DNA of 59,448 nucleotides, filler included, from Jimgerdemannia flammicorona (lineage: Eukaryota), in the NCBI GenBank assembly GCA_003990765.1. It is 3 parts of 3 records of this genome, joined end to end, with 100 filler letters (N's around TTAATTAATTAA, not from the genome) between each part and the next. Parts side by side here need not be neighbours in the genome. Positions count along the whole stretch, not along the records: positions 19,852 to 39,600 come from RBNJ01001859.1; 2 more parts are not named here. The stretch is one strand, 5' to 3'. The position numbers and the translations under genes are program-made. Under the pieces are notes generated by a model. That model searched no databases and was not told where the DNA came from. It saw only the letters and a program-made list of their open reading frames with translations. This document shows positions 21,265-47,200 of the stretch, piece after piece. Each line of letters starts with the position of its first letter. The first letter of the stretch is position 1.

Positions 21265-21313
21265 TGTAGATAGCTGGGTTCTTGAGCCAAATGGTCAAGT
21301 CTTTTGAAAACTT

Positions 21314-21330: not shown

Positions 21331-21333
21331 AAA

Positions 21334-23584: not shown

Positions 23585-23694
23585 ATATATATATATTCAT
23601 ATTTGTGTTTATGAATGTACTTATAAATATTTTTCTCTCACATTCTTTTTTTTATATATATAAGTAAATTATATGATAAGTTTTATTTATTCAC

Positions 23695-24012
23695 AGGATT
23701 CAAATTAGATAATTCAAATTCTATAGAAATATGAATTTGATGATTTGAATCTGATAATTCAAATTCATTAATTCAAATTTAGTAATTTTAATCTGAAGAT
23801 TCAAATCTGATAATTTGAATTCAGTGATTCAAATTCAGTAATTTGAATCACCAGTTTGAAGATTTGGATCAGAGCAGTCACAATTTGAACTAATTCAAAT
23901 TAATTATATAATGAATTCAAACTGATTCTGATCAGTTCAAATTGATTATATGATTAATTTGAATCAGTTTGAATCAAGAATAGTTACAATTTTAACTGGT
24001 TCAAACTGACTT
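23695..24012. repeat. Array of short TTCAAA/TTTGAA palindrome-derived repeats
   Basis: Many ATTCAAA and TTTGAA motifs occur on both strands within about 320 bp. Confidence 0.6.
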
Positions 24013-24165
24013 ATTTGGAGTACTATTTATAGACTCATCTAATAGTTATAAAAATACTGATAATGAGAAAGAGAATAATATTATTCTACTAGTTCTTAAT
24101 TTCAATTTAATCAATATAGACATTAGTTCTCTTTAAGAAGAAATAAATGAAATAAAATTATATAT

Positions 24166-25777: not shown

Positions 25778-26426
25778 ATATAAAATGAATAATCTTTGAA
25801 AAAGATATAAATAGCAATTATATAATCTAATAATAATATTACAAATAAGTAGTATACAAATAAAGAGATAAATAAGATATAAAAAATAATACAATAAACT
25901 CTCTAAATATTGATATAATAGTAATATAGTATTACTTAGCCACATTGCTTAACTTAGAGATTTATTTCAAAAGTAAACAGTATTTGCTCTAAATATAAAT
26001 AGTCTGTTTGCTCTAAGTATAAATAATATAGTTATATATATATTTAAATTAATATATATATATACTTAGTCAGAATTTATAAGTTATTACTTAGTAAATA
26101 TAGATAAATACTCTCAGTAATTATATTTAAAATAAATCAGTTTTAGTACAGTTCATATAAGAAAACTATAAGTTCTCTATAAATTGTAATAGTGACCCCA
26201 GAATGATGACATCAGTATAGGAGACAGTCTTTTCTTACAAGCCACCAGATTGGAGTATAAGAAGATCATATAGTATATGAGATAAGTGATGATGACCAAC
26301 TGTGAGTCATTGCAACCACAGTTCAGACATCTTGAGGAATGTAAAAGAAGGATCAAGAAACCACAGTAGCAGCAACCAACAAGACCCACCAATCTCAAAA
26401 TAGCTCAAAGACTTACTATAAACAAA

Positions 26427-27257
26427 ATGCCTACTGCTTACCAAACCTCAAGATCAAGGAACCACCAAGGCATCTCAGTCAAAGAAAGGATGTTTCAAGA
26501 CATCAGAAGAGCCATGAGGACTTGCTCAAGAAGGACTCCTAGTATCAACCTGGGTACTGCTAATCCTTATCATTATATCCTCTACTACTGTGAAATAGAA
26601 ACAAGTATCACCATTGCTACTAAATACCTCCAAATGTAGCAGGAGTATGAAATAGGAAACCTCCTCTGCTAGGAGTTTCCACAGGCCAGCACTCAAGAGC
26701 TACAAGATACCACTTCCATGGAGATATACAAAACAAGGACAGCTAAGAAGATCCATCAGATCTTCAGGCATATACCATAGTCAATCTCCAACTTGGAGTA
26801 TGTTAGAGTCTTAGATTTCAGAGACCTGTCATCCTGCTGTATCAATGCACTAGAAGCCAGAGTGGCTACAGAAGCCCAGTCCACTATCACTCTCAATAGT
26901 GATGAAGTAGAAGACTTCTGGCATCCTATCCTTCAGGACAACCCAGACCAATTCCTACAAGGATTAATCTCAGTATTCCAAGGCCCAAGCATCCAGGTTA
27001 GACCTCCCCAAGACCCCACATTTGTCCTCTATTTTGTGGAAGAGAACCTCATAGATTAGAGAGCCCCCAATTTCCCCACCACTGAATATGATAATGTCAT
27101 CAGCAATGATGTCATCCTGCATGACATATGCGAGATGCACAATATGCATGAAGTATATGAAACATGCAACCTACATGATAATGATGAATTCGTAGATCTC
27201 ATCTCCTTCAGTGATGATGAGGATGAAGCCCCTATGGTCTTGAACATTCTGCTCTAA
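26427..27257 (+). pseudogene. LTR-encoded ORF of Gypsy-B (5' LTR), 276 codons, in-frame stops only
   Basis: ATG to TAA spans 831 nt without a frameshift. Same length in the 3' LTR. Homologous to the Gypsy-A LTR ORF. Confidence 0.85.
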
Positions 27258-27813
27258 GTCTCTTGATGAAACAGAATTGTTCCAGTACTGGTATTTTGAG
27301 GTGACACAGAATTGTTCCAGTACTGGCATTTTGAGGTGATGCAGAATTATTCCAGCATCAGTATTTTGATATGATACTGAATTATACCAGCATTCTGAAC
27401 CTGTATAATCATTAGTGCTGACCCTGGAACTTAGCAGTTTTTCCTGTTCTGGTATTTTATTTTAGTTATTGGAATTTATATTTAGCTTTATATCTTAGCA
27501 ACCATTGAATTATATTTTGTATAAATACCCCTCTTATTTTCTCTGAAATAAAGTCAGTTCTGGTTCACTTACACTCAATTCCATACAAGTAATCTATGAG
27601 ATAACAAGACAGTTTAAAGATAAGAAGTTTGAGGACTATAAGACCTTAGGAAGACACTTCAATAAGAACTTGCTTATAACAAACTTGACTTAGTCTAAGA
27701 GATATATCTTGAAGAGAATCTGGCATATTTGAAGAACTCAGCAACCACTACATAACAACTTAGTACCTATTGGCTGGTAATTCAAGACAAATCCCTCACT
27801 TTCAAGCTGAAAA

Positions 27814-30800
27814 ATGAACAATCTCCACAACAACTACCCTGACTATAAGAGTTACCTCTGCAAGAATTCAAGATAAGATAGAAATGCATCCCCCCACATT
27901 CTATGAATATACTACTGAAGAGTCAATCCTGACCTTCATTGAAGACTTTGAACAATTCACCATCATATGAGCCCTTGGTGTAGATACACAATTGGCCCTT
28001 CTACTAGTCAGCCTCAGAGGACCTGCCAGAGACAAGTTCAATGCAGCCACTATTGCTAATAATGGCACAGTCAAACTTGCCAACATGAAGGCCTTTCTTA
28101 GAACAACATACTATACTGAAGAGATCAAACAAGCTCTTAAGGATCAACTCAATACTATCTGCCAGAGACTTAGTGAAGATTCCAACTCATTCTATATCCA
28201 AATCTGCCACCAGATTGTCTTGGCTAGCTATGATGATGCTCTCAAGGAACAAATAGCAGATTCAACCTTTCTCAAAAGAGTTTACTCTGAAATTGCCCTA
28301 GCAATCTAGTCTACCCCAGCTATACTGATCCTTGATCAGAAAGTGGTCTTTGTATAGAGATATTGGACTGTCAGACACTCTGTCAAACACTCAATGGAGA
28401 AAATAACTGGCATCAAGATAGAACCATCAAAGCCAATCAGTATTATACCCACTACAGTTGTAAGCAGATAACTAACTCCACCTACCCCCAAGATAGCCAA
28501 AGCTGACCCAGTGGAGGAACTTTCCAAGCAGTTCGCCAAGATGACTGCACACCTTGGTAATATTGTTAGAGAAGTCCAAAGCACTAACAAGAGATCAGTG
28601 CAGAGATTTGCAGCTGCTACAGAAGAATACAATATTATATGCTTCAGATGTAGAGAAGAAGACCACTATGCAAAGAATTGTATGACTGAAATGAGATGCA
28701 AGGCCCAACCAAGCAATGCTAGCAGAACCAGAGAACAAACCAATGTAGTAGTCATTAAGTAGATTGGTGACACTGATGATGAAAAATACTATAAGGAGCT
28801 TGAATTCTACCCTACTACTGAAGGTACCAGAACCCAGTCCAAGCCCTATGATAAGAAGAGCAACAGCAAGCCAGTTGGAAGACCAAAGAAGACCCCAGCT
28901 ATCACTATTCAAAGCAAGACTCAACCCAAGGAGATTGATCAAGACATAGAGTTAGATGAAGTTGTACAAGACCAAGATCCATCAGTATAATATCTACAAA
29001 AACCTCAAGAAACAGAAGATCAATACTACTTTTGGACAGCTAGCTGAAGTCCCTGCCTTTAAACAGCAGTTGAGAGTAGGACTTGCAACTACTGCCAAGA
29101 ATCAAGAGTACAAGATTGTAGAAGCTCACAATGCACAGGAAGAATTCGAAAACTCAGATAAAGAATCTGAAGATCAGCGCAAGACATCAGCCTATACCCT
29201 ATGTCAGATCAAAGACTGTATCTTTGATACCATCATTGATACTGGTGCTGGAGGATACCTTATGAGCAAGAAGGCAATTGACTGCCTAGGTTGGGATATT
29301 GAAGAGTCTATCAAAATGGTCTATATTACAGCAGATGGTATATGAGCTATTCTTCTTGGCAAAATCTGAGAAGTCTCCATCAAGATAAGAGGAACTACCA
29401 TCCCAGTAGACATGATTGTTACAAGTGTCACCAACTATGACATCCTCATTGGCAACCAATAGCTTCACAAGGCCAAGGCCATTATTGATCTCAATGCCCA
29501 GAAGATGCAGATCAACTATAGAGGAAGAAAGGTATGAGTCTCTATTAATGTCCATAAAGGAGTTCTATCAGACATGGAGGAAGGAGATGAGGTCTTTATG
29601 CTTGGTGAACAAGAACAAGAGCAAGACATCTAAGCTCACAGATAAGCAGTAGTACAACAAGATCATTGATGGCTATGTCTCTCAAGGAAGATGCCCTCAT
29701 GGTACTAGGATGTACTGCTCTGAACATCTGAATAACTACTGGTTCTATATCAGTAAAGTCAGAAAAATCCACCAATAGAAATATGAGCAAGAAGCCACCA
29801 AAACAAAGAGGAAAGCTGAAGAAGATGACCAGCCCCCAGAACTTCAAGCTGATAGTGATGATGAGGAGGAATAAGAACCAGATATCACTATCAAAGTCAA
29901 GAAGTTCCACCCCAAAGTCAAGATCCCAGAATACAAGACTGAAGGAGCTATAGGAATGGACCTTGCCAGCATTCAAGATGCTACCCTCAAACCACAGATC
30001 ACCACCCTACTTGGTACTGGAATTGGAGTCAAGCTGCTAGAGAACTATGTCGGAATTATCAAGACTAGGAGTAGTCTGGCCAAAAGTGAAATCTCAGTTG
30101 AAGGAGGAGTAATTGACCCTGATTACACTGGTGAGATCTTCCTTATAGTCAGAAATCACAACCCCACTACCCCATTTGAAGTCAAGAAGCATGACAGGAT
30201 TGGCCAGATGCTGATCCACGAAATTAAGAAGCCCAAGATCACTGAAGCCATTGAACTCATCAAGATCAAGAGAGGAGAACAAGGCTTTAGATGTACAGGA
30301 AGAGGAGCCTATACTGCCATCAAGATTACTAAACTTGAGCACAAGAAAGACAAGGATCAGAACAAGTATACATATATCATTGGAGAAACTTTCCTCTAGA
30401 AGAACAACTTCTCAAGATTCTATATCAGAATGAAGGAGTACTTACTACAGACTTCAGGGATATCCACAATAAAGAACCCAAGTACTATCATGAAGTTGAC
30501 ATGGCAATACCAAGCCCATCTACCAGAAGCCAGACCTATATCTCTTATCTACAGAGAATGGCTGTGAGCAGAACTCAAGGAAATGGAAGAAGTCAGAATT
30601 ATCAAGCAAGCTATCAGTCCCTGGACTTTACCCATTGTCCTTGCCCCAAAGAAAGGAAGCAAGCCTGGAGAGTTTGTGCTAAGACTCTACATTAACTACA
30701 GAAAGCTCAATGCCATTATCAAGAAGGATAGGCAGCTCTTGTCAAATATTCAAGAAATCCTTACCACCCTTGGAAGTGAAGCCAAATACTACACAACCTT

Positions 30801-33057
30801 GGATCTATTCTCAGGCTTCCATCAGATTGATCTCACTCAAGATGCCAGTGAGAAATCAGTCTTCATCATACCTGACACCACCTATATCTACCTGTGAATG
30901 CCATTTGGAATATACAATACCCCAGCAAGTTTTCAGCAAATGATGAACAGAGTCTTCAGCAATAAGATTGGAAAATGGCTCTTTGTCTATGTTGATAATG
31001 TGATCATCTTCAGCAACACTGTACAGGAACATGTCAATCACATACAGCTAGCCCTCAAGAAGCTCAAGGAGCATGGCCTTTACATCAAGCCTAAGAAATG
31101 TAAGTTTGCAATCCAGGAAATCACCTATCTAGGACACCTCATCAACCAGACTGGAATCCACACAGACCCTATGAAGATTGAGACTGTTGCAACCTACCTG
31201 AGACCCAGAACAACCACAGAAGTCCATGTCTTCCTTGGACTGGCCAGCTATTACAGAAGATTCATCAAAGGATACATCAATATTGCAGTATCTATCTATG
31301 AGCTACTGAAGAAGGAAACTAAATTCAAATAGACTAAGAAATGCCAAGAAACCTTCAATGAACTCAAGATCAGGTTGACCCAAGTACCTATCCTCAGAAG
31401 ACCAGATTGGAACCTAGAATTCATCTTGTAGACAGATGTGAGTACTATAGGACTTAGAGCAGTCTTAGCTCAGAAGAAAGATGGACATGAATATATCATC
31501 TCCTATATAAGCTGAGGTACCCACAGAGCAGAACAAAACTATAAGTCATGCAAGCTTAAATGCTTAGCAGTAGTTTGGGCAGTAGACAAGTTTCACTACT
31601 ACCTAGCTGGGAAATACTTCACCATTCAAACAGACCATTCTGCTCTTGCCTGGCTATTCCACACTCTGAACCCCAATGGAATATATGCCAGATATATCTA
31701 CAGGCTACAAGAGTATGACTGTACTATTAAGCACTGCTCAGGAAGAACCAATACCAATACTGATGCACTCTCAAGGACACCTCAAAATACCCCCATCAAG
31801 ACTATTTAACATGAATAAGGAGTTATACTATGGATTAATCAGCTATCTTAGACAGCGGAAGATGCCCAACCACCTCAAACTCTGGACAATCACTATCATC
31901 AACCAGACTTGGAAACAGTTTGAACTAGACAATACTATACTCAGAAAAGGAGAAAAGCTAGTAATATCCAAACACAAGAAGTATCAAATAATAAAGGAAG
32001 TACACAAGCAAGGATACTTAGGAGGAACCAACACATACGACAAGGTAAGAAGAACCATATAGTGGTCCAAAATGGAAAAAGACCTGTGCCAATTTGTCAA
32101 AGGATGTGATAAGTGCCAAAAACAGAAACAAGATCAGTAAGACCAGATATCTGAGTCATCAAGAATTGAGCCTATCCCCTTCCACCACATTGCAATGGAT
32201 ATCATTGGGCCACTATCAGTAATACTATCAGGAAACTGCTATATTATAGTTATTGTAACCTCTTTACCAAATAGATAGAAGTAGGAGCATTACAAGAAGC
32301 TAATGCCCTCTCTATAGCTAACTTTCTGCACCGAGAAATCATCTGCCACTATAAGACACCAAAGCAAATCACAACAAACTGTGGCACAGAATTTGTCAAT
32401 AGATTCCATGAGTTAATATATCAGAAATACAAGATTCAGCACATCAAGACTACTATATACCACCCTCAAGAAAATGGACAGACAGAGAGAACCAATAAGA
32501 CCCTTAAGAATATTCTGGTAAAAATCTCAGAGACATATAAGAATTGGGATAATTATCTCTTAACTGCCCTCTCTGTCCTATGAGACATATAGTTACAGAG
32601 TACACACTTTACCCCAAGGGAACTGCTCTTTGGAGAAGAAGATTCTGATGGAACCTCAGCCACAAATCTAGACCTAACTTGGAGACAGATTGATGCAGAA
32701 ATCTGGAGGCTACACCAAATCAGGAAGAAGGCTGAAGATTACATTATCAAGTTACAAGCACTGATAAGGAAGAATGTGAAAAAGAATCACAAGACCCTAG
32801 AACCCATCTGAATCGGAGAAAAGGTCCTACTGTATCAAAATATGGTAGAAGTCTCATGGTTGTGAAAACTGGAGCCCAAATAGGAAGGACCCTTCTATGT
32901 ATAAGATATCAAGGGAACTACCTTCTGGCTTAGAAAAATCTCAAGGACCATACTATCTACCATAGTATACAGGAACAGACTCAAGAAGTATCATAAACCT
33001 ATACAAGAGAAGCAAAATATGATGACTGCTCATGAGGTTCTAGTCCACAAATCATAA
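27814..33057 (+). pseudogene. pol: Gypsy-B gag-pol
   Basis: Zinc knuckle CFRCREEDHYAKNC. Protease IIDTGAG. RT motifs LDLFSGFHQI, MPFG and YVDN (decayed YVDD). RNase H. Integrase with CDKCQ and a GPFY module. Confidence 0.92.
29882..30312 (+). pseudogene. dut: Trimeric dUTPase domain between protease and RT
   Basis: All five motifs are present: AIGMDL, RSSLA, GGVIDPDYTGEI, DRIGQM, RGEQGFRCTG. Confidence 0.95.
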
Positions 33058-33585
33058 CAGCATGTCCTATGACCAATAGACTATCTGTCTGGACCATTCT
33101 CTAAGGGATACAGTACTAGCAACTACTCATCTGTGAGACTTTTGAAGCCAGAGGAGTTTGAACCATCAACTGATTGGTCAAGATCAGAATCAGGCCCTTG
33201 CTCTATATAAAGAGAGTGACCCTTCACCATCATGCCAAAATACATAGGGAAGACACCAGCCCATAAATACCACTTTTCAACCCCTTGCCAGAGGTTATGG
33301 GATCAGCAAATTTTTCAGGACTGGACCAATGAATAAGGATGCTCAAGAAGATCCTTATTTAGGAGAAAGATGTAACAGTGATCTCAGAATGATGACATCA
33401 GCACAGGAGACAGTCTTTCCTTGCAAGCCACCCATATAAGATAAGTGATGATAACCAACTGTGAGTCATTGTGACCACAGTTTAGACATCTTGAGGAATA
33501 TAAAAGAAGAATCAAGAAACTACAGTAGTAGCAACCAATAAGACCCACCAATTCCAAAATAGCTCAAAGACTTACTACAAACAAA

Positions 33586-34416
33586 ATGCCTGCTGCTCGC
33601 CAAACCTCAAGGTCAAGAAACCACTAAGGTATCTCAGTCAAAGAAAGGATGTTTCAAGCCATCAGAAGAGCCATGAGAATCTGCTCAAGAAGGACTCCTA
33701 GTGTCAACCTGAGTACTGCTGACCCTTATCATTATATCCTCTACTGCTGTGAAATGGAAACAAGGATCACTATTGCTACCAAATGCCTCCAAATGTGGTG
33801 GAAGTACGAAATAGGAAACCTCCTCTACTAGGAGTTCCTATAGGTCAGCACTCAAGAGCTACAAGATGCCACTCCTATGGAGATATATGAAACAAGGATA
33901 GCTAAGAAGATCCATTAGATCTTCAGGCATGCACCATGGTCAATCTCCAACTTAGAGTATGTTAGAGTCTCAGATTTCAGAGACCTGTCATCCTACTATA
34001 TCAATGCACTAGAAGCCAGAGTGACTATAGAAGCCCAGTCTACTATCATCCTCAATAGTGATAAAGTAGAAGACTTCTGACATCCTATCCTTCAGGACAA
34101 CCCAGACCAATTCCTGCAAGGATTGATCTCAGTATTCCAAGACCCAAACATCTAGGTTAGACCTCCCTAAGACCTCACATTTGTCCCCTATTTTGTGGAA
34201 GAGAACCTCATAGATTGGAGTGCCCCTGATTTCCCCACCACTGAATGTGATGATGTCATTGGCAATAACATCATCCTGCAAAACATATGTAAGACATGTT
34301 ACATGTATGAAGTATGTGAAACACATGACCTATGTGATGACAATAAATTTGCAGATCTTATCTCCTTCAGTGACAACAAGAATGAAGCCCCTATGGTCTT
34401 GAACATTCTGCTCTAA
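33586..34416 (+). pseudogene. LTR-encoded ORF of Gypsy-B (3' LTR)
   Basis: 831-nt copy of 26427-27257 with a partly different set of stops. Confidence 0.85.
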
Positions 34417-35760
34417 GTCCCTTAGTGATGCAGAATTGTTCCAGTATCAGCATTTTGAGATAATGCAGAATTGTTCCAGTACTGGCATTTTGAGGTGATA
34501 TAGAATTGTTCCAGCACCAATATTTTGATATGATACTGAATTATACCAGCATCCTGAATCTGTACAACCATCAGTGCTGACCCTGGAACTTAGCAGTTTT
34601 TCCTGTCCTGGTATTTTATTTTAGTTATTGGAATTTATATTTAGCTTTATATCTTAGCAACTATTGAATTATATTTTGTATAAATATCTCTCTTATTTCC
34701 TCTGAAATAAAGTCAGTTCTGATTTACTTACACTCAATTCTATATAAGCAATCTAAGAGATAACAAGATAGTTTAAAGATAAGAAGTTTGAGGACTATAA
34801 GAGCTTGGGAAGGCACTCCAATAAGAACTTGCTTATAACAAACTTGACTTAGTCTAAGAGATATATCTTGAAGAGAATCTGGTGTATTTGAAGAACTCAG
34901 TAACTACTATGTGACAATATATATATTGTGGCGTCGGGTTTGTACCTCTAGTTGCTTCAAGCACAGCTCAATGTGTGCCACTGGTGAAGTGCACGATGGA
35001 TAACTGAAGGTGTTGGTGACGTTCGCGGGTCAATGGTCACATGACAGATCGTTCAATTCATGTGGTAATTGATAATAGCAGGAGGTCATTTGATGATGGT
35101 GGCTCAATTGTTTAGTGGATGAGGTCGTTTGATTGTTTAATGGCTCAATATCCAGTGGAAAAGGATGTTTCTGGTGGCGAACTTGAATTTATACAGTGAC
35201 GATGGGCTTGGCTTTAAGCGGTTCGTGGCACAGTAGGTCAGGAAAATGGAGGTTGATGGCTCACTCGTCCGTCTTGATTAACTTGAAAGGTTCCTGGCAG
35301 TCATTTGGGTCTTTGGCAGTGGTCTTGTATCCTTTGGCTGGGTAACTTGGGTTTCTGGGTCTTGAATCTCGAATGGTGGTCATGGTCTTGAATCCTTGGC
35401 TGGGTCTTGGGTCTCAAATGGTGGTCGAATGGTGGTGGTCAGGTAATGTTTTCTTTCCGTGGCAAGAGAAAATTCTTTAACTCAAACTTCTGAGTGATCC
35501 GTTGCTCTAGGTTGTTATTTTGTTCTCAGAATTTATCCGGTCTCTTGGAGGCAGTGAGGTTTCTCAGTAATCCTTTTTACTTTTAAACACAAACTGACTG
35601 AGGCTTTATTCACTCTAAGGATATGGGTTATTTATACAAGTTTGCTAGCTATGGGTGCGGCTAAGGTATACTATGTTGTGGCAAACATTTGCTATGCTAT
35701 TGGCTTGCACGACGCAAGGTGCAGGCTATTGTTTACTATGGATTGGGTTATAGGGGATAG

Positions 35761-36026
35761 CAACGCTGAATTCGGACCTGCTGACAAAATGCTGAAAATG
35801 GTAGTACTGGGTAGCAATGCTGGATTCGGATGAGCTGACATGATATGATGATTGTTGCCAGAAACAGTTGTAGAGGGTGGCAATGCTGAATTCAGACCTG
35901 CTGACAAAATGCTGAAAATGGTGGTACTGGGTAGCAATGCTGGATTCAGATGAGCTGACATGATATGATGATTGTTGCCAGAAATGGTTGTAGAGGGTGG
36001 CAATGCTGAAAACGGACTTGCTGACA
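35761..36026 (-). repeat. 120-bp-period tandem repeats in LTR-A, between the ORF stop and the TATA box
   Basis: Units start at 35761, 35881 and 36001 (CAAYGCTGAA...). Confidence 0.85.
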
Positions 36027-36059
36027 AAAGCTGGGTTCTCATGGCTGATGAGCGGTACT

Positions 36060-37046
36060 CTAGAGGGAATAGTACCCTTTGTCTGCGGCAGGCAAATCTT
36101 GCTGGGTTGTGATTTCTTCTTCATCATATCTCTTCTCAAAGGGGGGGAGCACCGGCCAAGAGATGAGGGGGTAGAAAAGTGGCCAGTCATCTTCAACAAC
36201 ATTTTCCAATCCCTGAACTGCTTGAATGCAGACAGAGGACTGGTAGACTCTCTGTTGCTCCTCTTCTTCTTCTGAAGACTCATCAGTTTCAGTGTCAGAG
36301 GGGGTTTCTTCAGGGGCAGGGTCTTGGAGTTCTTGGGCCTCCTCTTCAAAGACAGGAACTTCTTGGGCTTCTTCTTGATTTGGTTCCCAAATGATGAGGT
36401 GTGAATTGTGGCTGACAAGATGGTGGGTGATTAGGGTAGCTCTAACAGGTGCCTCTATAGTAATGGGCTGTCCTTCAAATATCTCCATAAGACTTATTAG
36501 GTGACCTTGATGGTTGTCTCGGAGTGGGGTAGTGTGGGAACCTGGCTGAGTGGGTTTGGTTTGTTGGCTTCCTATGGCGACGCAGTTGCTGCCAATAGAG
36601 TTGGCTACTTCGGATTCTATCCAGTCAGCATCTTCAGTTGATAGGCGGGAGAGGCTACCAGCTATTACTCCTTGCAAGTGTGCTATAGCCCAGGGAATAT
36701 GGTAGAAGATTTGGTGGACATGGAGGGCTCTTTTGATTAGCCAGCTGGTGGTTAACATTTCGGCAATGAGGTCTTCCTGGTTGCCTTCTTGAGTCTCATT
36801 GTGAAGGTAGTGTCCAATTTCGTAGTCATACCAGAGGGTCATTCGTTCGGTAGTATCTTTGAGCTGTTGGGTCATTATATATCGGTAGTTGATGAAGTGT
36901 CCAAGATCCTTGGTGTAGAAGTTCAAGTGTTCGAAAGTATCTGGGCACCAGATGGCCTTTTTGATAGCTTCAAAGATCAGGGTCTTTGGGCCAGGCAAAG
37001 GGGTAGAGCGGCAGGAGGTCTGGTTGGATTGGCGAATGGGAGGCAT
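36060..37046 (-). CDS. Intact LTR-encoded protein of unknown function (328 aa from MPPIRQ; frame open to 37160) with an acidic C-terminal region
   Basis: Uninterrupted ORF wholly inside the LTR, with homologues in two other LTR families in this window. Confidence 0.8.
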   Translation of the reverse strand: MPPIRQSNQTSCRSTPLPGPKTLIFEAIKKAIWCPDTFEHLNFYTKDLGHFINYRYIMTQQLKDTTERMTLWYDYEIGHYLHNETQEGNQEDLIAEMLTTSWLIKRALHVHQIFYHIPWAIAHLQGVIAGSLSRLSTEDADWIESEVANSIGSNCVAIGSQQTKPTQPGSHTTPLRDNHQGHLISLMEIFEGQPITIEAPVRATLITHHLVSHNSHLIIWEPNQEEAQEVPVFEEEAQELQDPAPEETPSDTETDESSEEEEEQQRVYQSSVCIQAVQGLENVVEDDWPLFYPLISWPVLPPFEKRYDEEEITTQQDLPAADKGYYSL

Positions 37047-37589
37047 TGTGTAGTGGGTACTTGGTTCTTTGGTGCCGATCTCTGAGGCAGAGTATGGTTC
37101 CTTAAATAACGTGGTCTTCATTTTGGCTTGGATCATCTTGTCTTCTTTTGGGGTGATCACCTAATAGGTCAGGCTGTCTATTTGATTGTCACACCATTAT
37201 GTCATCTGATCTTAGCAGTCACCGGTACTCCATTGTCAATTGTGTACGTTACATCTGCCCCTTACAAAATTAGAGCCATCCTCAGCAGTGAAGGTTACAC
37301 AGAGTTGGGTGGTCTTAACTCCAGGGACGAGCAGAATGTTGGCGCATTTGTGAGGACTGGCCATCCTTGTCTAGGGCGAGGGCTCCCATAGTCACGGCTG
37401 GGGGTTCGAACCCATTGGAAATAGTATTACTTGTAATCCAAGGCAATTTCTTAGTAATAATGTCTGTCACGTGGATGGGCTTGAGTCTGGTTCCAACATT
37501 GTTGGCTTTCTTGAGTTCCAAGTGAAATGTCCATCGTATTTCCAATGGAGATGATACAGACAGAGTAAACAGGATTGTTCAAATGCATT

Positions 37590-39600
37590 TTGCTTCTCTT
37601 GAGTAGTAGAGTCTTATGCGGTTGCAGTATATCTTGGTCTTGAGAATAACTCCATCCAAGGTCTTGAGTTGATAAGTATGGTTCAAGAATACTTGGTGTA
37701 TGAGATAGGGGCCTTTCCATTTTGGTTCAAGCTTGGCACTCCAATTTCCTTCTATGATAGTATGGTACACCAGAACCTTTTGTCCAATGAGCAGGGGTTC
37801 GAGGTCGGCTTTGCAGTCATAGTACCTCTTTTGTCATTCTTGTGCCTTGGCGATAAATCCTCGTGCCTGCTGGCATATGTTGTGTAACTGGGTGATCTCT
37901 TCTGTGACTCACTTTGATAGGTCTAGCTGGACTGGTTCAGTAGGATCTTGTGCTTCTTGGCCATACACTAAATAGAAGGGGGTCTGTTGGATAGCAGTTG
38001 CCTTAGAGGTACGGATGCTGAACAGAATTGCTGGTAGATAGATATCTCAGTTTAGTTGATCTCTAGTTCTATTGAGACCTCGCTTGATGGTCTGGTTCAT
38101 TCGTTCAGTGAGTCCATTTGCTTGTGGGTGGTAGGCTGTTGTTGGTCATAGCTTGATCTTGAAGTTGCTCGCAAAGGTCTTCATGGCTTGGTTGATGAAT
38201 TCTCAGCCTTGGTCTGTAATGATTTCCTTGGGCACACCATGGCGGCTGAAAATATCATCATACAGGATCCCAATAATTGTCTGGGCATCGGCAGTCTCAA
38301 TGGCAAAGGCTTCTGGCCATTTTGTCAGGTGGTCTTCGATAGTGAGGATGTAGCATCTTCCTTGGCTGGTTACTGGTAGGGGTCCAATAATGTCTATTCC
38401 CAGTCTTTGAAAGGCTCCAGCTGGTGCTGCGATTGGTATTAATGGTGCTTTGTCAGTAGGCTTTTGTCAGTATCTTTGGCAGGTATCACATTGTTGAATG
38501 TGTATTGAAATTTGTTTTCTCATCTTGGGCCACCAGTATCGCTTCTTGATTCTTACAATTGTGGCGCCAATTCCTCAGTGTGCATTTTGGTCATGATTTG
38601 TTATCAGGATCTTTAATATTTCTTCTTCTCTTGGAACTCAGGTGTACTGCTCTCCTTCTACTCTCTAAAGTTCACCATCACCTTCTTGGAATTTCTTGAA
38701 ATTCCTTTGGATAAACAACTTGTGGGCTGGTTGGATTCCTTTCTTGAAGCTTCTATGGTGCAGACTCCAGGTGAGGGCGAGGCACAATTCTTGGTTCATT
38801 TGGGTGAGTGGGAAGCAGCCTTCTCTTGTAAGGGCTCCTTCCCTTCTTGTTGGTTCCACGGGATTCTTGACAGAGTATCGATGTTGGAATTCTTAGCACC
38901 TTTCTTGTAGACAATAGTGAACTGATATTCTTGCAGAGATATGATCCATCTAGCGAAGATTCCTGAGGGCTCCGGCTTGCTGAACAACCATTGTAGAGCT
39001 TGATGGTCAGTAATGAGGGCGAATCTCTTTCCCAAGAGATAGTGTCGGAAGTGGTCTACAGCCCAAACTACAGCTAGACATTCCAACTTAGTGGCTCCAT
39101 AGTTTGCTTGTATTTCATTTGTGGCCTTGCTAGCATATTCATTAACATGCTCCCTCTTCTGGTCATCTTGCTGAGACAGAATTGATCCAAGTCCTAAGGC
39201 TGAGGCATCAGTTGCCAGGATGAATGGTTTGCCAAAGTCTGGTCACACTAGGACAGGGGCTTCGGTAAGGGCCTTCTTGAGTAGGTCAAATGACTTTTGT
39301 TGTTCTTCTTTCCAATAGAATGATTGGTCCTTCTTGGAGATATCTTGGAGAGGTGCTGCCTTATCTGAAAACCTTGGGATGAATCGTCGATAGTAGGATG
39401 CCAGCATAAGGAAAGATAGGGTCTCCTTTGCTGAGGTTGGGGTTGGGTAGTTCTTGACTTTCTCCACCTTGTGGGGGTCGGCATGTGTTCCTTGAGCTGA
39501 GACAACATATCCCAGATATTCGACTTGATGTTTTCTGAAGAAGCACTTCTTGGCATTGAGTCTGAGTCCTGAATTTCGAATGTTATTGAATACTTCACGG
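37590..39600 (-). pseudogene. pol: Gypsy-A copy 2 pol (end of RT, RNase H, integrase)
   Basis: FLMLASYYRRFI, ATDASALGLG, ECLAVVWAVDHFRHYL, CDTCQ, HPQANGLTER, KWKGPY. Confidence 0.92.
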
Positions 39601-39700
39601 NNNNNNNNNNNNNNNNNNNNNNNNNNNNNNNNNNNNNNNNNNNNTTAATTAATTAANNNNNNNNNNNNNNNNNNNNNNNNNNNNNNNNNNNNNNNNNNNN
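39601..39700. other. Artificial contig spacer
   Basis: Identical N44-TTAATTAATTAA-N44 structure. Confidence 0.97.
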
Positions 39701-40240
39701 TCGAACACCTCAGCCTCCGTAACCTGCTTGTTGGCAAGCGTCTCCGCGATGTGATATTCTACAACGAAATCGTCTGGCGCCGATCTTTCTTCGTCGACGA
39801 GTCCTGGAGTAAGCTGTCCGAGCGCTCGTGGGCTATACGCGAGCAGGATCATTGGTTTCGAGTTGCCAAATCCTCTCGGAGGTGGTGTTCACCTGTCCGC
39901 CGAGTTGTGCTTGACGATACGTGGGTGATGACGGACTCCGCTGAGTTCCTTCTGCGACGATATCTGGCTCTCAGGAACTATCCATCCAAAACCCCAGGTT
40001 TTTGTCCGTGGAGGCCATCTCCGACATTCTAAGTAAGCTGACGAATGAGCGAGCCGCAATCGGAAGCCCGCCCTATCGCTTGACAAAGTCATTTACAGGA
40101 ACGCTGAACGTGACGGGGGAGACGCTCAAGGGGCTAACGGGCGACGCGAGGCACAAAATTGACTTTTACAAACAAATGCGTTCCACCACCCTTCCGAACG
40201 AACCGAGGCCGTGTGCATATTGCAGCGGCGACGATCGGTG
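39701..40240 (+). pseudogene. Possible F-box/LRR-like gene fragment with a frameshift near 39972
   Basis: LRNLLVGKRLRDVIFYNEIVWR resembles an F-box end. VRRVVLDDTWV, then (frame-shifted) ELSIQNPRFLSVEAISDIL, look LRR-like. The region is CpG-rich like the neighbouring genes. Confidence 0.35.
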
Positions 40241-40736
40241 CTTTTTTATTATATTATATTATATTATATTATATTTGTTTGTTTGTTTGTTGGTTTGTTT
40301 TTTTACCATTGCAACGAGCGCTTCACCCCTGCCTGTGTTGCCAATCTGCTTCAGCTGCCAAGGAAATGATGAGAGAGAGGGCTGGCCGCAAGGCTTTGTC
40401 CGTCCAGATCTTTACTCGTGTGCAACAATTGGCCGACCATTACCAGGAGCGGTCCGAGTACCGTGCCCGCTAAATCGTGCTGTGTCTGCTATTATCGCAT
40501 TTACGATAATCTTTTTTATTGCGGAATGACCAAAACTCGTCGATTATCAAGACATCGCACTCACACCATGTGATTTGAGAGTCTCTGTAATGGTCTGACT
40601 ATATATCATAGAGACGCGCCGGAAAATTTCTATGCCAATCAAGAAAACAGGCGCTATGCTGACGTAAGTATACCATCTTGATTTTGGCCGTCAAAGACCA
40701 GTTCGCTTCTTGAACTGTCGCGCCACTGGATTCATC

Positions 40737-43700
40737 ATGACCGCACAAGCAGACGTAGAAACCAAACGAACTCAACTGGCCGAGATTCTCAGCGATCGCG
40801 TCTCCATCATGGAGACTGACGAGCCTGACGAGCCCATTCAAGATCAGGAGACGCCTCAGGATATGTCGCCATTGCAGGAGGGATTCTGTGTCGAATGCAA
40901 GGATCAGGAGGTACGATACTTATCACCTCCCTTCCAGGAGTGTATGCTGCCGTAAATGCACTTGCCTCTGGTCAAGTGTGCCCGGACGTCTTGTGGGTGC
41001 TATGAGAGGTGGTTACGACAAGGTCATGTGGAGCGGGCCGAAACGAGAAATTTAAGGGAGCAGAACATTTGTATATAGAATGCTAAATCTCTATAACATT
41101 TAATGCGGGGTCTCTAATTAGTCCACACTTTTCTGCGAGCAATGCTTGGAGGACTTCTGCGAGGTGTGTCATTCTATGATTCATCGCACGGGCACCCGCA
41201 AAAAGCACACAAGCAAGAGGCTAAAAGACGTGGCTTCGGCGGCGGCGGCTCCGACGACGGTCAATGGCAACGAGGCTGCCAACGCGTCCGTGCCGAACTC
41301 GGCACCAGCATCGGCGAGGGAGACGCCTGAACCAGAAAGTGCGGGAGCGAGCAGCGAGGTTCTTTTTTTATTTTTATTTTTTTAGTGATGGATTGATTTT
41401 CCCTCTTCTTCGAGTAATGTGGATTTCATACTTGGCGGTACATACAGGAATCGGAGAAACCGACAATGGAGGTCGAGCAGCAGGCTAGGAATATTAACGG
41501 GACCACAATTATCAGTAGTGGTGGACAATCATTTGGGGATTGGATGTCCGAAAGGTGAGTCCCAGATATTGATCATCGCCTTTACTTCCTGCAAATATAT
41601 AAACATTTCTCATTTTTAATCAATGAAACGTGCATCAGGGCAAAGTACATCCCCCTAAGATTATCCCTGGAAGAGCGAAAGTACCTACGATTGTAAGATC
41701 ATTTTCTTTACATATCTCAAATTCTCATCATTGTTCAGCAAACCCTCTCCCGAATGCAAATCAATGGTCGACCTTCCCAAAATGCTTTTTTTAGGCTTGA
41801 AGCGGCGATCACTGTCTCCGAGTACACGGACAAGATCGACATAATCTCATACACGAATAAGTCTAAGCGCATCGTGAACCAAATCCGGGACCTATGCGCA
41901 ATCCTGTCGGGTTTGGTGGTCGCGTGCGATTACAAGCTGGGCCAGGAGCTGTTTGCGGAGCGTCAGTTTGCGGAGAACGAGGCGTTCTTTCAAACTGTGT
42001 TCGAGATTGGGAGGAGGTAAGGGATTATAGTTATCATAGAAGAATCGTCACAAGTGTTAGGTGTTGCATTAACTCTAAAGAGTTGAGGTGTTTCCTTGGG
42101 TTATGTAAATTTTTGTAATTGACAATATCAACAAATATGATGCGATTTACAGGCACAAGATTGTGAACCCCGAAAAAATGCGATCGGCCTATGGCAAGCT
42201 AATGTACATGCTCCAAGACTCCGTCATTCCCGAAGTGCAAGACATGCTCTCCTTCAGCTGCGTGCGACCTATCAAGACGGTGTACAGCTTTCTTGAGGAA
42301 TTCGATGGTCTCAGGATATTGCAGGACAATGCGGTTCTCGTGGCAACCAAGGAGATTATCCCGGATGGCAAAACGCGCTATCAGATCCAGACCGAGATCA
42401 AGCAGAAGGAAAATGCGATCGAGCAGTTGAGCCGGAAGTACACCAATCGCATGTTGTCGTCGGAAAGTATCAGGAATTGCTTATATAGTATCGGAGATAA
42501 CCATGCTTATTTGCGAGGAAATCGGTAAGTATCTGAATCCGGGATGGCTGGAGAAATTAGAAGGCAAAACTATACGCGCACATAAACCTTATTCTTGGGG
42601 CAACCATATGAATCCAACTTACTACATACATATCACCCTTTCCTGATCTCCATTATTTCAGCGACCCGTGCGACAAGATGCTCAAATACCTGACCACGTA
42701 CTTCCATCCTAACAAAATCGAGCCCAACTACTCCCTCTCCATCACCTCGGGCCGCGCTGGTCATCGCCTCTCCCACGATCACGAGACACAGTACGCTTAC
42801 GTAAACCAAACCCTGAACCTGTGGCGCGAGATTCTTCATGAGATGTTCATGCTGTGGTCCCTGGCAGATCGAGATCTGCTTGAGACCTCGAACTTGTACC
42901 GATTGAGGGATACAGGACAGGGATTGAATCGTGTGCAGGCGTGTCCGTCGGTGGGGAGGGAGATGCATCGGATCTTGCATCGCGCGCAGCAGAAGGCGAA
43001 GTATTGGGTGGGGTCGAGCGTGATACATTTGGGGGACAGAAATGTACCGAATGCGTTAATGTTCATTGATAAGGTGAGATAAGGGGGTTTTTTTTTTTTT
43101 TTTCCTCTTTTCCCCAACGCAGTTCAACTGGTGACTCAACGGCTGTGAAACTAATCCGCCTATCATATTCCTCTTCACCCAGTACAACCAAGTCTCGCGC
43201 ATCCTAAACCCAACAATTCTTTGCCTAGAGAAGCTTGAGGATTTTGCGAAGAATCCTGGCCTGCAGAGGTACCTTGATGAGACGTTTGGTGGCATAGATA
43301 AATGCAGGAAGGATATTTTGGGTAAGTATTGGTCAATCAGTTATGCGTTCGCAGGATTTACAGTTTAGGACTTGGGGTGGAGTTCATGCATTTCTATTAT
43401 CTGATGTGTAAAATATAACTTGCGTTGTCACTCGACGATAATATGCAGCCGATTTCTTCCGAAGTGCCTTTGACGGATCGGGCGCTGATAATTTCTTCGA
43501 TGCCGGTAGCTGCATCGATGGGAGGTTGACATCAGCTTGGAACTGTAAGTTTTTTATTTTATTTTTATTATTTTTTCCTGAAGTGTATGTCGGCGGAGGA
43601 AACGGGTATAATCAGAGTGAAGCGACAACAAATTCAGCCGTGTGCGCAATGGGTTCATGCTGGCACATGCCATTTATTTGATGGGCACGATATGTTCAAT

Positions 43701-43912
43701 TAACATTATTTCCGCATTATTCGCGACATCAAGGGTGTTCACAAATCGAGAAGAAGCCATACTTCCCTGTGTTCTTGTTGACGGTAAGTTATGGCCCGAC
43801 TTTTTGACAGCCCCAGAAATGAATTGTCAAGCATTAACCCCTACCCCCCTTATCTACTACATAATTTACTTTGCAGGGTTTCGTCGGATTTGATGGGGGT
43901 AGCTGGAACTAG
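40737..43912 (+). CDS. UPF0652 / DUF2009 family protein with N-terminal B-box-like zinc finger; multi-exon
   Basis: GT-AG exons encode CVECKDQ...CEQC.EDFCEVC...HRTG.RKKH, RAKYIPLRL, NPEKMRSAYGKLMYMLQD, WVGSSVIHLGD, FDGSGADNFFDAGSCIDGRLTSAWNWC and GFVGFDG, ending in TAG at 43912. Confidence 0.9.
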
Positions 43913-44245
43913 CAGTCGTCTAGTAACGTACCTCTTAAATGATATTTTGAAGAGGTTGAACAATTATTCGAAAAAAAACCCCCCCAAAAAAAAAAAAAAA
44001 AAAAAAGAAACATTGAAAGACAGTCTTCGGTTCAGTGTGACCTTCTAGAAACGCAGCTCACTCAAAACGTAAATTCTTTTTTCTCTTCCTACTGTTGGAG
44101 AACTGTTTCATTTCTCTGTCTGTTTAACCCAAAAGATAACAAATAGCCGTTATGTTGATTGGAATTTATTTCATGGTGTTGAGTGTTTTCGTTTGGAAGT
44201 AATCCGCGCTCGCTTAGATAGCGAAACTTACACGATCGGCGAGGC

Positions 44246-47200
44246 TTAAATAAACCCTTCCTTGTTGAACCACGCTGCGACATCCTCCCGATCTCTTTCA
44301 ACCCATCGACTGTAGATGCGAGCTGATTCAAGACCTTGATCGAGAGCGCGCTGGTAAGCTTTAGTATTTCTTCTCTTGAGAAAGTTTTCGGCCTCTTGAA
44401 TCCGTTGGTGAGAACCGAGTCCTTCGATCGAGTAATTGAGAAGGGTTCCAAAGATAAATGATTGCTCGCTGTAGCGTGACTCGATGGCGTCGAAGTTAGC
44501 AGTGAGCCATTCCCAAAAAGTAATACGCGAGGTCGAGTTCTTGGAAAGCCTAATTGGTAGGGGTGAATAGGATGGAACAGGTGAGGAACACATCCCTTGG
44601 GTACATCGCCAAGTCAACACTTTAATGAATTTGCAAGCTACTCACGCGGCATAAATGTAACCTGTGTCTTGTCGTCTGACTCTTTTGTCGTCCAAGCTCA
44701 ACTCGATCGTTCTCCTGAAAAGCTCAGGCGTTTGTACCAAGCCCAAGCCGTGCAGAGCAGTCATTTTCTGCTCAGGCGAAAGTGTCGGGTCTTCGTACAA
44801 TTTCAAGATGGCATCATATTCCTCCGAACCATCGCCATCGCTGTTTCTCAAGGCAATACCGTATACGGCTCGCCTAAGGTTCGGATGGAGTACCTCGGCG
44901 TCATCATCACGGACTAATTTCCAGAAACGCCGCTTCGCTTCCGTGACAGTTTCCGGATCACTGCCGATGCCAGCGTTGGTAATGGCAAGGCCGCGGAGCA
45001 AAGTTGTTTGATCATCCTCACCAGGCATCATCTCCCAGCCAAACTTGGCGACCAGAGGACTAAATAAGTGCCGGTGAAGAGCCTTCAAGCCGTCGCGAAC
45101 CTCCATAGGTTGTTCGAACCAAGCAGACGAGATATTCGACAAAATTACGGAAATTTTGGACCATACGCTGAAGATCGGAAGAGTGAATAAGCCAGTCAGT
45201 CAGTAACAATAAGTCATGGCGGAACAACGACAGACTGTAAAGTATGAATAACATACAAATAGTTCTCCTCCTTTTCAAAAGCTCTAAGCAATTCCAAAAG
45301 CCCGCTTGTCTTCTTTTGTCCACTGACGCTAAGACTGGCAGCATCAGAAAGCAACCCAATACGATCGGTAGGATCACTCAGTATGCCATCCTTTCCCTTT
45401 TTGATTTCCTCGGCGAGGGTCTTTAGGATGTCGATTGAATAGTTGACACGATATAAACCAGTTTGACGCGCGTTCAACTTGAAAACACTTGATGAGAGTT
45501 TGAACGTGTTTGTCTTGTCCGTTAACGTCAGCGCGGACGGGGAGGAGGCGATGTTGAGCGGAATCCACCATGTTGTTTCGTCTTCGGATTCAGCAACATC
45601 TCCGGTTGAGAGATAACGTGATTGGCGAACCTCAATGGTTACTTCATCAAGGCTGACAACGTCGACGACTGGATACTACCAAAAAGTCAGAATGATTTCT
45701 CGTTTCGTTAGGAATGCCTATACTACGCTAAAGGCCGAAATACGACAAATGAATTAAAATAACGTATACCCCGACTCTCTTAGTCCATAAATGCATGAAA
45801 ACGCCAACATCAACACCCGCCTCTTCACTCAAAGCATTCCATAAGTCAAGCGTCTTGGCATTTTGGTACTTGTGCCGATGAAGATACCTTCTGATGCCAG
45901 CAAGGAACACATCAACACCCAACCAAGAACTCAACATCCGAATCACGCTTGCGCCTTTGGTATATGATATGGCATCTACAAAGACAATGAGGAACAAGGA
46001 TAAGCAAATCAGGCCACTATTGCTGTCCAATCAATACATGCGACCAAACTCACCAAAAATCTGACGAATTTCCTCAGCTTCGCCAACAGCTACCTCAATC
46101 GGATGAGAGCTTCGAAGGGCATCAAGGGTAAGGGCACGAGGCATATCTTCCGTAACAAAACTATGGAGTTCGCCGAATATATAAAAAAAATTGGATTGAT
46201 TCATACATGCGCAATTCCAATTAGAGATGCCTAAGCCACAGGCCCCTGTGCCCCACAGATAAATTGTAACTTACGAAGTCCAAACATCCAATTCTGGGAA
46301 GAGTTTATCTACAGCGAACCATCCGATCCTGGATGTTCAAAAATGTTTATTTAGAAATCATTTCCACAAAGAAATTTACTTTAGTCATATACTAAACTGT
46401 AAACACAATGAACTTACCAAGTCGCAAAGCCCTCTTTCAGCCAAAGGTCGTCCCACCATTCCATCGTCACGAGATTACCGAACCACTGATGGGCCAATTC
46501 ATGGCAGACGACATAGGCGACGCCCTTCTTTAATTGCAGTGACGAAATTTTCTTGTCGAAGAGAAGCGAGGTGGTGCGGTATGTGATGAGACCCCAGTTT
46601 TCCATGGCGCCTACGTTTTTTTTTTTTTTTTTTAGGTACAGGTGATTGAAAAGTAGTCGTATGGGTCCAGATGGAGCACAGTTGACGTTGGTCGGTAGTC
46701 TCTAAATTATCGCCGAGTCTACTTGTATTGTGGTGCGTCGTTTCACTTACACCGTTACTGAAGAGGCAATGCCATCAACTCACCTATAATGAAATCCGGA
46801 ATTGCCACCATATCCATCTTTGGAAGAGGAAACGGGATACCAAACACATCGGCAAACAAGTCCAGCGCCTTCGTGGCCACGCCTAGAGCAAATCTGCCCT
46901 GCTCCACCTGATTGGGAAGGGCGTACACACGCGTGCGGATGCCGCTCGAAGTGAAAGCCTCGATGTGTTCAAATGGACCGACAATGAATGCCAAAAGCTG
47001 AATTAAAAAGAATATGTACATTAGCCAATCGGATGGAAGCGCATCCCAAAGGTAGTTTTGAGGAAGAACACGATATATAACCGTACATAGGTACTCATAA
47101 TGGGCGTCCTGGCGAATTTCACTTCTCTCAAAGCGCTGTCGTCCTCTGTGTTAATGATGGATTCGTCCGCAATGACGTTCAGATTGGACAAAGCTGCCAT

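Follow-up and report, generated by a model that had tools for sequence, protein, structure and literature searches.

In a stretch of 59,448 nucleotides (nt) from the genome of Jimgerdemannia flammicorona (assembly GCA_003990765.1), hereafter the window, an open reading frame (ORF) of 328 codons lies wholly inside a long terminal repeat (LTR) of a Ty3/Gypsy retrotransposon, and homologous ORFs occupy the LTRs of a second Ty3/Gypsy family. It is very probable that this ORF is a real gene, maintained by selection inside the LTR. The window is a 59.4-kb nest of decayed LTR retrotransposons plus two intron-bearing host genes, and the LTRs concerned are termed LTR-A, LTR-B and LTR-C. The initial annotation had proposed that a conserved protein family is encoded within all three. 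For A and B this is firm, but the C copy is marginal (12.4–13.2 bits against the family profile), and data from outside the window add about three more subfamilies.

Seven copies of the ORF were counted in the window (two A, four B and one C), as had been noted initially, and the copy at 36060 is the only intact one. The copies are located as follows:

36060–37046, minus strand: intact LTR-borne ORF, 328 codons plus stop, starting with MPPIR, 208 nt inside LTR A2
22395–23378, minus strand: ORF copy in A1, with one internal stop and 86% identity to the A2 protein (tblastn)
24419–25085, plus strand: ORF copy in B1, broken
26427–27254, plus strand: ORF copy in B2 (5' LTR of the B element), broken
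33586–34413, plus strand: ORF copy in B3 (3' LTR of the B element), broken
about 57121–57931, minus strand: ORF copy in B4, broken
53090–54180, minus strand: decayed C ORF, ATG 290 nt into LTR-C, sense, at the same relative position as in A and B, of marginal homology

The frame at 36060–37136 on the minus strand is open over 358 codons, and the relatives all begin at its Met31 (MPPIR, 37046), the start that the initial annotation had given for a fully intact copy. The ORFs are sense with their elements, with A on the minus strand like its reverse transcriptase (RT), RNase H and integrase, and B on the plus strand like its zf-CCHC, dUTPase, RT and RNase H domains. When the A protein was compared with the window by tblastn, three of the four B copies were found at 24–26% identity over 195–221 amino acids (aa), with E values of 2.4e-13, 2.0e-11 and 7.8e-10, respectively. 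The B4 copy was missed by tblastn and was found by a family profile hidden Markov model (HMM) built from eight members, which matched all six A and B copies. These results bear out the claim of homologous sense ORFs in LTR-A (2.3 kb) and LTR-B (1.55 kb), and the spacing of 36 aa between the motifs YEIG and HQIF was read from both sequences, in agreement with the same annotation. The C ORF matched the profile with an E value of about 0.01, for which the search space was the window's six-frame fragments, and it possibly belongs to the family. The stops in the B copies were mostly of the C-to-T kind, and their reading frame was largely kept.

Carrier elements of the ORF

The LTRs that carry the ORF, and the elements to which they belong, are listed below:

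34927–37253, minus strand: LTR-A copy A2, 2327 nt, 3' LTR of a truncated Ty3/Gypsy element, with TGT...ACA ends
37254–37263, minus strand: polypurine tract (PPT) AAGGGGCAGA, abutting the first base of LTR A2
37264–39644, minus strand: decayed pol of the A2 element, ending at the N gap that begins at 39601
37264–38798, minus strand: integrase of the A2 element, directly upstream of LTR A2, with nine stops in 409 codons
38799–39242, minus strand: RNase H of the A2 element
39246–39644, minus strand: RT end of the A2 element
21334–23584, minus strand: LTR-A copy A1, 5' LTR of another A element
21319–21330, minus strand: sequence TGGGGGCTCAAC, resembling a primer-binding site (PBS), 3 nt after LTR A1, with a gag-like frame next
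26185–34916, plus strand: complete decayed B element, whose 5' LTR (B2) ends at about 27757 and whose 3' LTR (B3) starts at 33371
ahead of 3' LTR B3, plus strand: PPT AGGAGAAAGA
24166–25773, plus strand: LTR-B copy B1, an isolated LTR
56672–58173, minus strand: LTR-B copy B4, 3' LTR belonging to a second B element, at the end of the window, with PPT AGGAGGAAGA
51212–54469, minus strand: solo LTR-C, ending in TG..CA and flanked by a perfect target duplication of 5 bp, AGTTC

The two copies of LTR-A share 82% identity and the termini TGT...ACA, as judged by direct-repeat comparison. The four copies of LTR-B, each of about 1.55 kb, comprise two that bracket one complete element, one 3' LTR and one isolated LTR. 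The interior of the B element encodes zf-CCHC, dUTPase, RT, RNase H and integrase (31802–32994) on the plus strand. The Ty3/Gypsy domain order of RT, RNase H and integrase on a single strand is found in element A (minus) and in element B (plus). LTR hallmarks were likewise present, namely TG..CA ends in A, B and C, a PPT at A2, B3 and B4, and the PBS-like site at A1; no PBS was identified for the B element. The target duplication is clean only at solo LTR-C. The flanks of the B element (TAAAT and ATATA) and those of B1 are AT repeats without a clean match, and both A elements are truncated. Runs of N (two pairs of 44 nt) at 19752–19851 and 39601–39700 are the break-off points of both A elements.

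The pol proteins of A and B share 50% identity in RNase H, 37% in RT and 35% in integrase, so the two are clearly different Ty3/Gypsy families, and the ORF is carried by diverged families as had been proposed. It occurs in 3' LTRs beside an integrase and a PPT (A2, B3 and B4), in a 5' LTR beside a PBS-like site and gag (A1), in a 5' LTR upstream of gag (B2), and in a solo LTR with the AGTTC duplication (C).

The dUTPase domain of the B element was located at 29875–30396 (plus strand; Pfam E 1.7e-25), between the zinc-knuckle/protease region and RT. A dUTPase between protease and RT is an arrangement that the relevant passage of a fungal chromovirus survey describes for some basidiomycete gypsy elements (PMC2864245).

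LTR-C interrupts the RNase H of a further gypsy element, which is AT-rich and has its RT and RNase H fragments on both sides of the LTR. Its existence as a solo LTR agrees with the initial annotation, but its length is about 2.06 kb, not 1.84 kb, after subtraction of a 1.18-kb nested insertion (51701–52878). The inserted sequence is a GC-rich repeat with three copies of 75–82% identity, at 51701–52878 (minus strand), at 18577–19751 and at 3080–3606 together with 10340–10986; a 6.7-kb insertion interrupts one of the other copies. On either side of the copy in LTR-C lies one unit of a 17-nt direct duplication, AGTATAAATACTCCCTC, which takes in the TATA box of the LTR.

Selection on the reading frame

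The ORFs of A1 and A2 differ at 91 of 984 nt with no gapped positions, compared with 57 gapped positions in the following segment of the LTR and 96 in the last segment. In the ORF frame, 43 of the 91 differences are synonymous and 48 are non-synonymous; in the five other frames, the synonymous differences numbered 18–36. In a context-matched neutral simulation, in which CpG transitions, other transitions and transversions were placed randomly on the ORF in the numbers observed, 61.3 ± 3.6 non-synonymous differences were expected, and 48 or fewer were obtained in 0 of 5000 runs. The Nei-Gojobori omega for this pair was 0.27, a value biased low by the excess of transitions over transversions (87:4). 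The A copies are under purifying selection. Among the differences between the two ORFs, 37 are transitions in CpG context and 50 are non-CpG transitions; the mutational process is apparently not confined to CpG, since these 50 lie outside that context.

The two LTRs of one B element were taken as a neutral control, because their divergence arose only after insertion. This pair showed no preference for the ORF frame, with a synonymous fraction of 0.28 compared with 0.24 and 0.34. Pairs from different B elements preferred the ORF frame in five of five comparisons (0.32–0.43 vs 0.24–0.29). Since the between-element pairs show the preference and the same-element pair does not, part of the divergence arose where the protein mattered. 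The selection on the protein that had been proposed initially is therefore seen as an excess of synonymous differences both between the LTR-A copies and between B elements. These tests cover copies within LTR-A and within LTR-B; between the subfamilies described below (25–57% aa identity), synonymous sites would be saturated.

Special protection of the intact A2 ORF was also considered, and it was dropped as evidence. The integrase of the A2 element contains its nine stops in 409 codons compared with none in 328 codons of the ORF, at CpG observed/expected ratios of 0.31 and 0.28, respectively. Eight of the nine integrase stops are TGA, probably derived from CGA, and the ORF has three CGA codons. 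At the integrase rate of 8 in 12, the survival of all three has a P value of about 0.04, which is suggestive only.

Relatives outside the window

A search of 1.84 billion representative proteins returned seven proteins at E ≤ 1e-3, including five at E ≤ 1e-10. Word-based searches gave two matches with a single protein and nine with a profile. The clusters to which the relatives belong are tiny (one to six members) and, where named, are labelled 'hypothetical protein'. In a scan of metagenome DNA, two loci were confirmed out of 187 pattern matches, and in a scan of viral contigs none of 89 pattern matches was confirmed. Both of the metagenome contigs for which DNA was available carry an intact ORF, of 291 and 323 codons, respectively. 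Intact relatives outside the window thus exist in public metagenome data.

The intact relatives are 247–342 aa long, show 25–79% identity, and form about five subfamilies: an A-like group, P0004, L001 with P0005, L002 with P0018, and a B-like group of P0007 and P0017. Identity between these subfamilies is 25–57%. Invariant or near-invariant positions include W..YEI, A...HQ.F.H.P..I, V, LS, L.DN, F.G and an I..P block.

Chance open frames in repeats, with no gene behind them, would suit the fact that most copies in the window are broken. Such an origin is nevertheless extremely improbable in view of the open frames of 247–342 codons in about five subfamilies of 25–57% identity with common invariant columns, the synonymous excess in the ORF frame only, and the complete lack of indels over 984 nt between the A copies.

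Probable placement in U3 and cis motifs

In retroelements, three signals mark the border of U3 and R, in the order TATA box, poly(A) signal immediately ahead of the start site, and initiator-like motif. The ORF is assigned to U3 because the TATA/AATAAA/TCAGT core that lies downstream of it has this layout, and the conservation of that core supports the original placement of the ORF inside the LTR, in U3. In LTR A2, the following motifs were identified:

35605–35636, minus strand: core TATAAATA-N18-AATAAA followed by TCAGT, presumed genomic promoter and poly(A) signal
35760–36033, minus strand: tandem repeat, 120 nt × 2.3, in an enhancer-like position that separates the ORF stop from the core promoter
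37102–37108, minus strand: TATA1 (TATTTAA), 62 nt upstream of the ORF start, candidate ORF promoter

LTR-B likewise has a tandem repeat (35 nt × 3.5) between the ORF stop and the core promoter. After the repeat, A and B share a conserved block of TGTATAAATA, 16–18 nt, (A)AATAAA and TCAGT. In the outside contig L002, the ORF is followed by an aligned TATA/AATAAA/TCAGT block, and no other non-coding block is as well conserved among A, B and L002 as TGTATAAATA with AATAAA and TCAGT. The arrangement TATAAATA-N(8–25)-AATAAA occurs seven times in the window compared with 0.02 expected; six of these occurrences belong to the six A and B LTRs, where they follow the ORF. The initial statement that the LTRs share no DNA similarity holds at the BLAST level, but A, B and the outside relative have these short conserved cis blocks in common. 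The seventh TATAAATA...AATAAA block is located at 48878–48908 (minus strand), in an AT-rich stretch at 48–51 kb outside LTR-A and LTR-B. No family ORF was detected at this block, which may indicate where the AT-rich gypsy element interrupted by LTR-C has its LTR.

A TATA-like motif is present 62–87 nt upstream of the start codon in A2, B1, B3, B4, L001, L002 and C (78 nt in C). It reads TATAAAA in B1, B3, B4, L001 and L002, TATTTAA in A2 and TATATAT in C. No ATG occurs between this motif and the start codon in B1, B3, L001, L002 and C; B4 has one in a mutated leader, with ATA at the start position. The leader AAGACTTACCACAAACAAA(A/G)ATGCC is common to B, L001 and L002 despite 43–57% protein identity. 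These motifs suggest an ORF in U3 with its own upstream promoter, a reading to which we give an even chance.

The U3 gene could instead be expressed like sag of mouse mammary tumour virus (MMTV) or nef of human immunodeficiency virus (HIV), with translation either from a subgenomic RNA produced by splicing or from the 3' end of transcripts that start in the LTR, and the upstream TATA would then be no promoter. The ORF of every 3' LTR does lie on the genomic transcript, downstream of pol, and the TATA1 motifs are short and missing from one of the four B copies. This mode of expression is possible and in our view unlikely, since the distance from TATA to ATG (62–87 nt) is kept across families whose proteins are only 25–55% identical, most families have no ATG between TATA1 and the start codon, and B, L001 and L002 have the conserved leader in common.

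According to another alternative, the upstream TATA would drive transcription of the genomic RNA, and the ORF would lie in a very long R or leader region as the first cistron of the full-length transcript. The TGTATAAATA/AATAAA/TCAGT block, with its U3/R-border layout, speaks against this, and an R region of 1.3–1.5 kb would be, to our knowledge, far longer than any other. The conservation of TATA1 with an ATG-free leader is in its favour, as is the observation that the sole AATAAA seen downstream of TATA1 is the one after the ORF. We consider this arrangement decidedly unlikely.

The predicted protein

With a ten-row alignment, AlphaFold2 predicted helices over residues 20–150, and the predicted local distance difference test score (pLDDT) was below 50 for residues 160–328. 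For the N-terminal 199 residues (13 rows), an all-alpha model was obtained with a pLDDT of 67.7 and a predicted template modelling score (pTM) of 0.62. In addition to this helical N-domain of about 155 aa, the members have a conserved L-x-D-N...F-x-G block. The tail has an isoelectric point (pI) of 4.1–4.4 in seven of eight members, with 22–32 D+E compared with 4–9 K+R, and the eighth is a 214-aa partial protein; the acidic tails reported initially for A and B were confirmed, with a pI of about 4.1. The tail is proline-rich, and after the acidic run it ends in a hydrophobic block, P-(L/V/W)-(I/V/T)-L-N-F, with the variants PLILNF, PWVLNF, PMVLNF and PVTLNF, and with WPLFYPL in A. A disordered acidic tail with bulky hydrophobic residues, as found in acidic activators, is thus present.

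None of the ten members examined matched a Pfam family, and the only chance-level match was to SPL, at E 0.12–0.13, far under the cut-off. No PDB sequence matched at E ≤ 10. Fold searches used two models of middling confidence, from which novelty of the fold does not follow: the best E values of Foldseek against PDB were 0.4 and 0.8, and a VIA-wide fold search gave best Z scores of 4.2 and 4.4, tied with unrelated helical proteins, and none of 48,161 chains at Z ≥ 5. In BFVD, the best E was 0.3 and no match was obtained at E ≤ 0.001. No described gag, env or accessory family was matched in Pfam, and no solved structure, which supports the initial interpretation.

A resemblance to DUF3102/YhcG-N had also been suggested, and it has no sequence support. 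No Pfam match to it was found (E ≤ 10 for the window protein, E ≤ 1 for the ten members), and BFVD contained only non-significant Foldseek rows, with E values of 0.71 and 0.83, template modelling scores of 0.22–0.36 and root-mean-square deviations of 19–30 Å. The Basidiomycota family DUF6532 (PF20149) reached an ESM Atlas score of 0.88–0.89, below the lead threshold of 0.9, and was rejected, with no PF20149 match in 10 of 10 members. The other sub-threshold ESM Atlas lead was DUF6698.

The nearest Atlas neighbours, all from Basidiomycota, are host-type families (DUF6532, below threshold), as might be expected if the ORF were a passenger or captured host gene without a role for the element, or a domesticated gene resembling an LTR. 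Neither DUF6532 nor any other Pfam family was matched by any of the ten members, and purifying selection acts between element copies. The position, orientation and flanking cis motifs of the ORF are the same across LTR families with 35–50% pol identity, which argues that the gene has long been inherited vertically together with the element. Among 4417 candidates, neither a longer nor a fused host-type form turned up, which is weak evidence in the same direction. We regard an origin of this kind as very unlikely.

Proposed explanation

We propose a Ty3/Gypsy lineage with an accessory gene wholly inside the LTR, driven by its own promoter and encoding what may be a trans-acting regulator or adaptor; taken as a whole, this explanation is evenly poised. 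The gene would be positioned in U3, between the 5' end of the LTR and the core promoter. Reverse transcription, by copying U3 to both ends, would yield two copies of the gene per full element and one per solo LTR. Judging from the motifs, the gene would be transcribed from its own TATA box 62–87 nt upstream of the first ATG, and the mRNA would end at the LTR's own AATAAA, located between the second conserved TATA box and the initiator-like TCAGT motif. The resulting transcript of about 1.3–1.5 kb could be produced from any LTR, and each LTR would be a complete transcription unit. This transcript would cross the core promoter and reach AATAAA more than 1 kb from its cap, and the 5' end of the genomic RNA, which would start at TCAGT, would be free of AATAAA. 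Host factors would be brought in by the acidic tail, for example to activate the adjacent LTR promoter via the tandem repeats between the ORF and the promoter.

Two more specific versions can be formulated. In the first, the LTR would be a self-contained cassette of TATA box, ORF and poly(A) signal that encodes a trans-acting factor of an undescribed fold family, and insertions and solo LTRs would seed expressed copies of the regulator. With the poly(A) signal placed just upstream of the genomic start site, the short mRNA and the genomic RNA could share it. We put this version forward tentatively, at clearly less than an even chance, and with similar reserve we suggest that such a cassette may be the counterpart, arisen in fungi, of the accessory genes of complex retroviruses. 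In the second version, suggested by composition and position, the protein would be a transcriptional activator of the LTR resembling Tas of foamy viruses, which we consider speculative and rather unlikely. Direct binding to DNA is disfavoured because the N-domain is not basic.

The protein might also counter host silencing by DNA methylation, heterochromatin or RNA interference, with the acidic tail and terminal motif serving as a decoy or docking site. CpG observed/expected ratios are 0.01–0.3 in all transposon DNA compared with about 1.0–1.1 in host genes, which indicates that the host targets the elements. The N-domain is non-basic and without a recognised DNA-binding fold, and divergence has been faster in the protein than in pol (25% compared with 35–50% identity of A to B), as would be common for proteins that face host factors. 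There is no link to any silencing pathway and no similarity to known suppressors in Pfam or BFVD, and the copies in the window were silenced and decayed regardless. An anti-silencing factor is, by our estimate, improbable, although nearly as likely as an activator of the LTR.

A number of observations weigh against the proposed explanation of an LTR-borne accessory gene with its own promoter. Six of the seven window copies are broken, the homology of the C copy to the family is marginal, and no element was demonstrated to pair an intact pol with an intact ORF. The single intact copy could be a chance survivor, the simulations having led to an expectation of about four stops for the 91 differences between A1 and A2. 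The intact relatives were taken from gene calls and have open frames by construction, so that their intactness reflects a biased sample, and the short fragments P0006, P0008, P0009 and P0020–22 are probably decayed copies. With regard to the promoter, the upstream TATA is mutated in B2, TATA-like motifs are short and AT-rich, and A2 has two in-frame ATGs upstream of TATA1, from which a 358-aa product is possible. With regard to the protein, one of five AlphaFold2 models of the N-domain reached the pLDDT of 67.7 and the other four reached 46.7–51.1. The N-domain has a pI of 5.7–6.6, and fold searches against PDB recognised no DNA-binding fold for it, which weakens the idea of an activator.

Other features of the window

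The two host genes lie between the transposon-derived parts of the window:

41.7–43.1 kb, plus strand: DUF2009-type host gene, intron-bearing
44.1–47.2 kb, minus strand: M1 aminopeptidase host gene, intron-bearing

The CpG boundary is sharp, with observed/expected ratios of about 1.0–1.1 at 39701–47150, which covers the host genes and 1.9 kb upstream of them, and 0.01–0.3 in all transposon DNA. Contigs of two sequencing runs of unspecified type, compared with 19900–39600, matched LTR-A and LTR-B only in short, scattered pieces of 90–99% identity, with very high word depth on some LTR-B pieces and no coverage of long internal stretches; no conclusion on expression was drawn from them. A repeat unit of at least 4 kb is present twice (44–3606 and 13976–19126), 14 kb apart and with 72–77% identity. 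It contains three consecutive minus-strand frames (744–2512, about 540 codons) without a Pfam match, and may represent either a further unclassified element or an LTR of great length. The region 4001–10000 has a GC content of 0.50–0.52, is extreme in its GC skew (-0.36 to -0.49), and contains an RT fragment (5264–6591, minus strand) and an 836-nt tandem duplication (4732–5567 and 5568–6403, 94% identical).

Comparison with known systems and significance

Accessory genes that lie in or overlap U3 are considered a hallmark of complex vertebrate retroviruses, with MMTV sag, HIV nef and foamy-virus bet as examples. Like the ORF described here, MMTV sag is a sense ORF of about 320 codons inside U3, so that both LTRs and the 3' end of the genomic RNA contain it, and it is accessory and dispensable for reverse transcription. 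In contrast, Sag is a type II membrane glycoprotein of a vertebrate retrovirus, and the protein of the fungal Ty3/Gypsy elements is helical and acidic with no predicted membrane segment. The tas and bet genes of foamy viruses are also accessory genes, located at the 3' end and reaching into U3, and are driven by a second promoter, and Tas is a transactivator with an acidic activation domain. They differ in that their internal promoter is situated within env and most of their coding sequence falls outside the LTR, and an activator role for the present protein is only a working model. No sequence or fold relation to sag or to tas/bet was found in Pfam (ten members) or BFVD.

Among LTR retrotransposons, the extra ORFs treated in the relevant part of PMC11963269 sit in the internal region. 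The additional ORFs (aORFs) of plant Ty3/Gypsy elements discussed there (Retand TRP28, Grande, RIRE2 and Ogre) are conserved lineage-wide, lie in the internal region and are often antisense. They resemble the present ORF as conserved extra ORFs of possibly regulatory function with tandem repeat arrays nearby; unlike them, the present ORF is sense, lies inside the LTR (5', 3' and solo), occurs in a fungal host and has no Pfam match. In the Tor elements of Oikopleura, as summarised in PMC4402516, an extra promoter downstream of the 5' LTR drives env. These elements thus have an additional promoter besides the LTR promoter for their third gene (PMC4402516), as is proposed here for the LTR-borne ORF, but in the present elements the candidate promoter and the gene are both inside the LTR. 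A figure legend in a survey of fungal chromoviruses by Novikova et al. 2010 names an 'add. ORF' of unknown function, for which the text gives neither position nor sequence (PMC2864245). That source resembles our case in showing an additional ORF in at least one fungal Gypsy element, and it includes dUTPase-bearing basidiomycete elements resembling element B (PMC2864245). In full-text searches of incomplete coverage, by which novelty is not proven, no account of a protein-coding ORF within a fungal retrotransposon LTR came to light. The LTR-borne accessory gene appears to be new for fungal LTR retrotransposons, and the protein family appears to be without described relatives.

If this explanation is true, LTR-borne accessory genes evolved independently in LTR retrotransposons, and solo LTRs, which are usually seen as regulatory debris, could be protein-coding. 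Coding constraint would then shape the length of the LTR and the divergence of U3 in these families. Annotation pipelines for transposable elements that mask LTRs would hide the protein family, which may explain why only a handful of members were found among billions of proteins. The protein encoded by the ORF would also be a defined candidate for how these elements cope with a host that methylates and mutates them.

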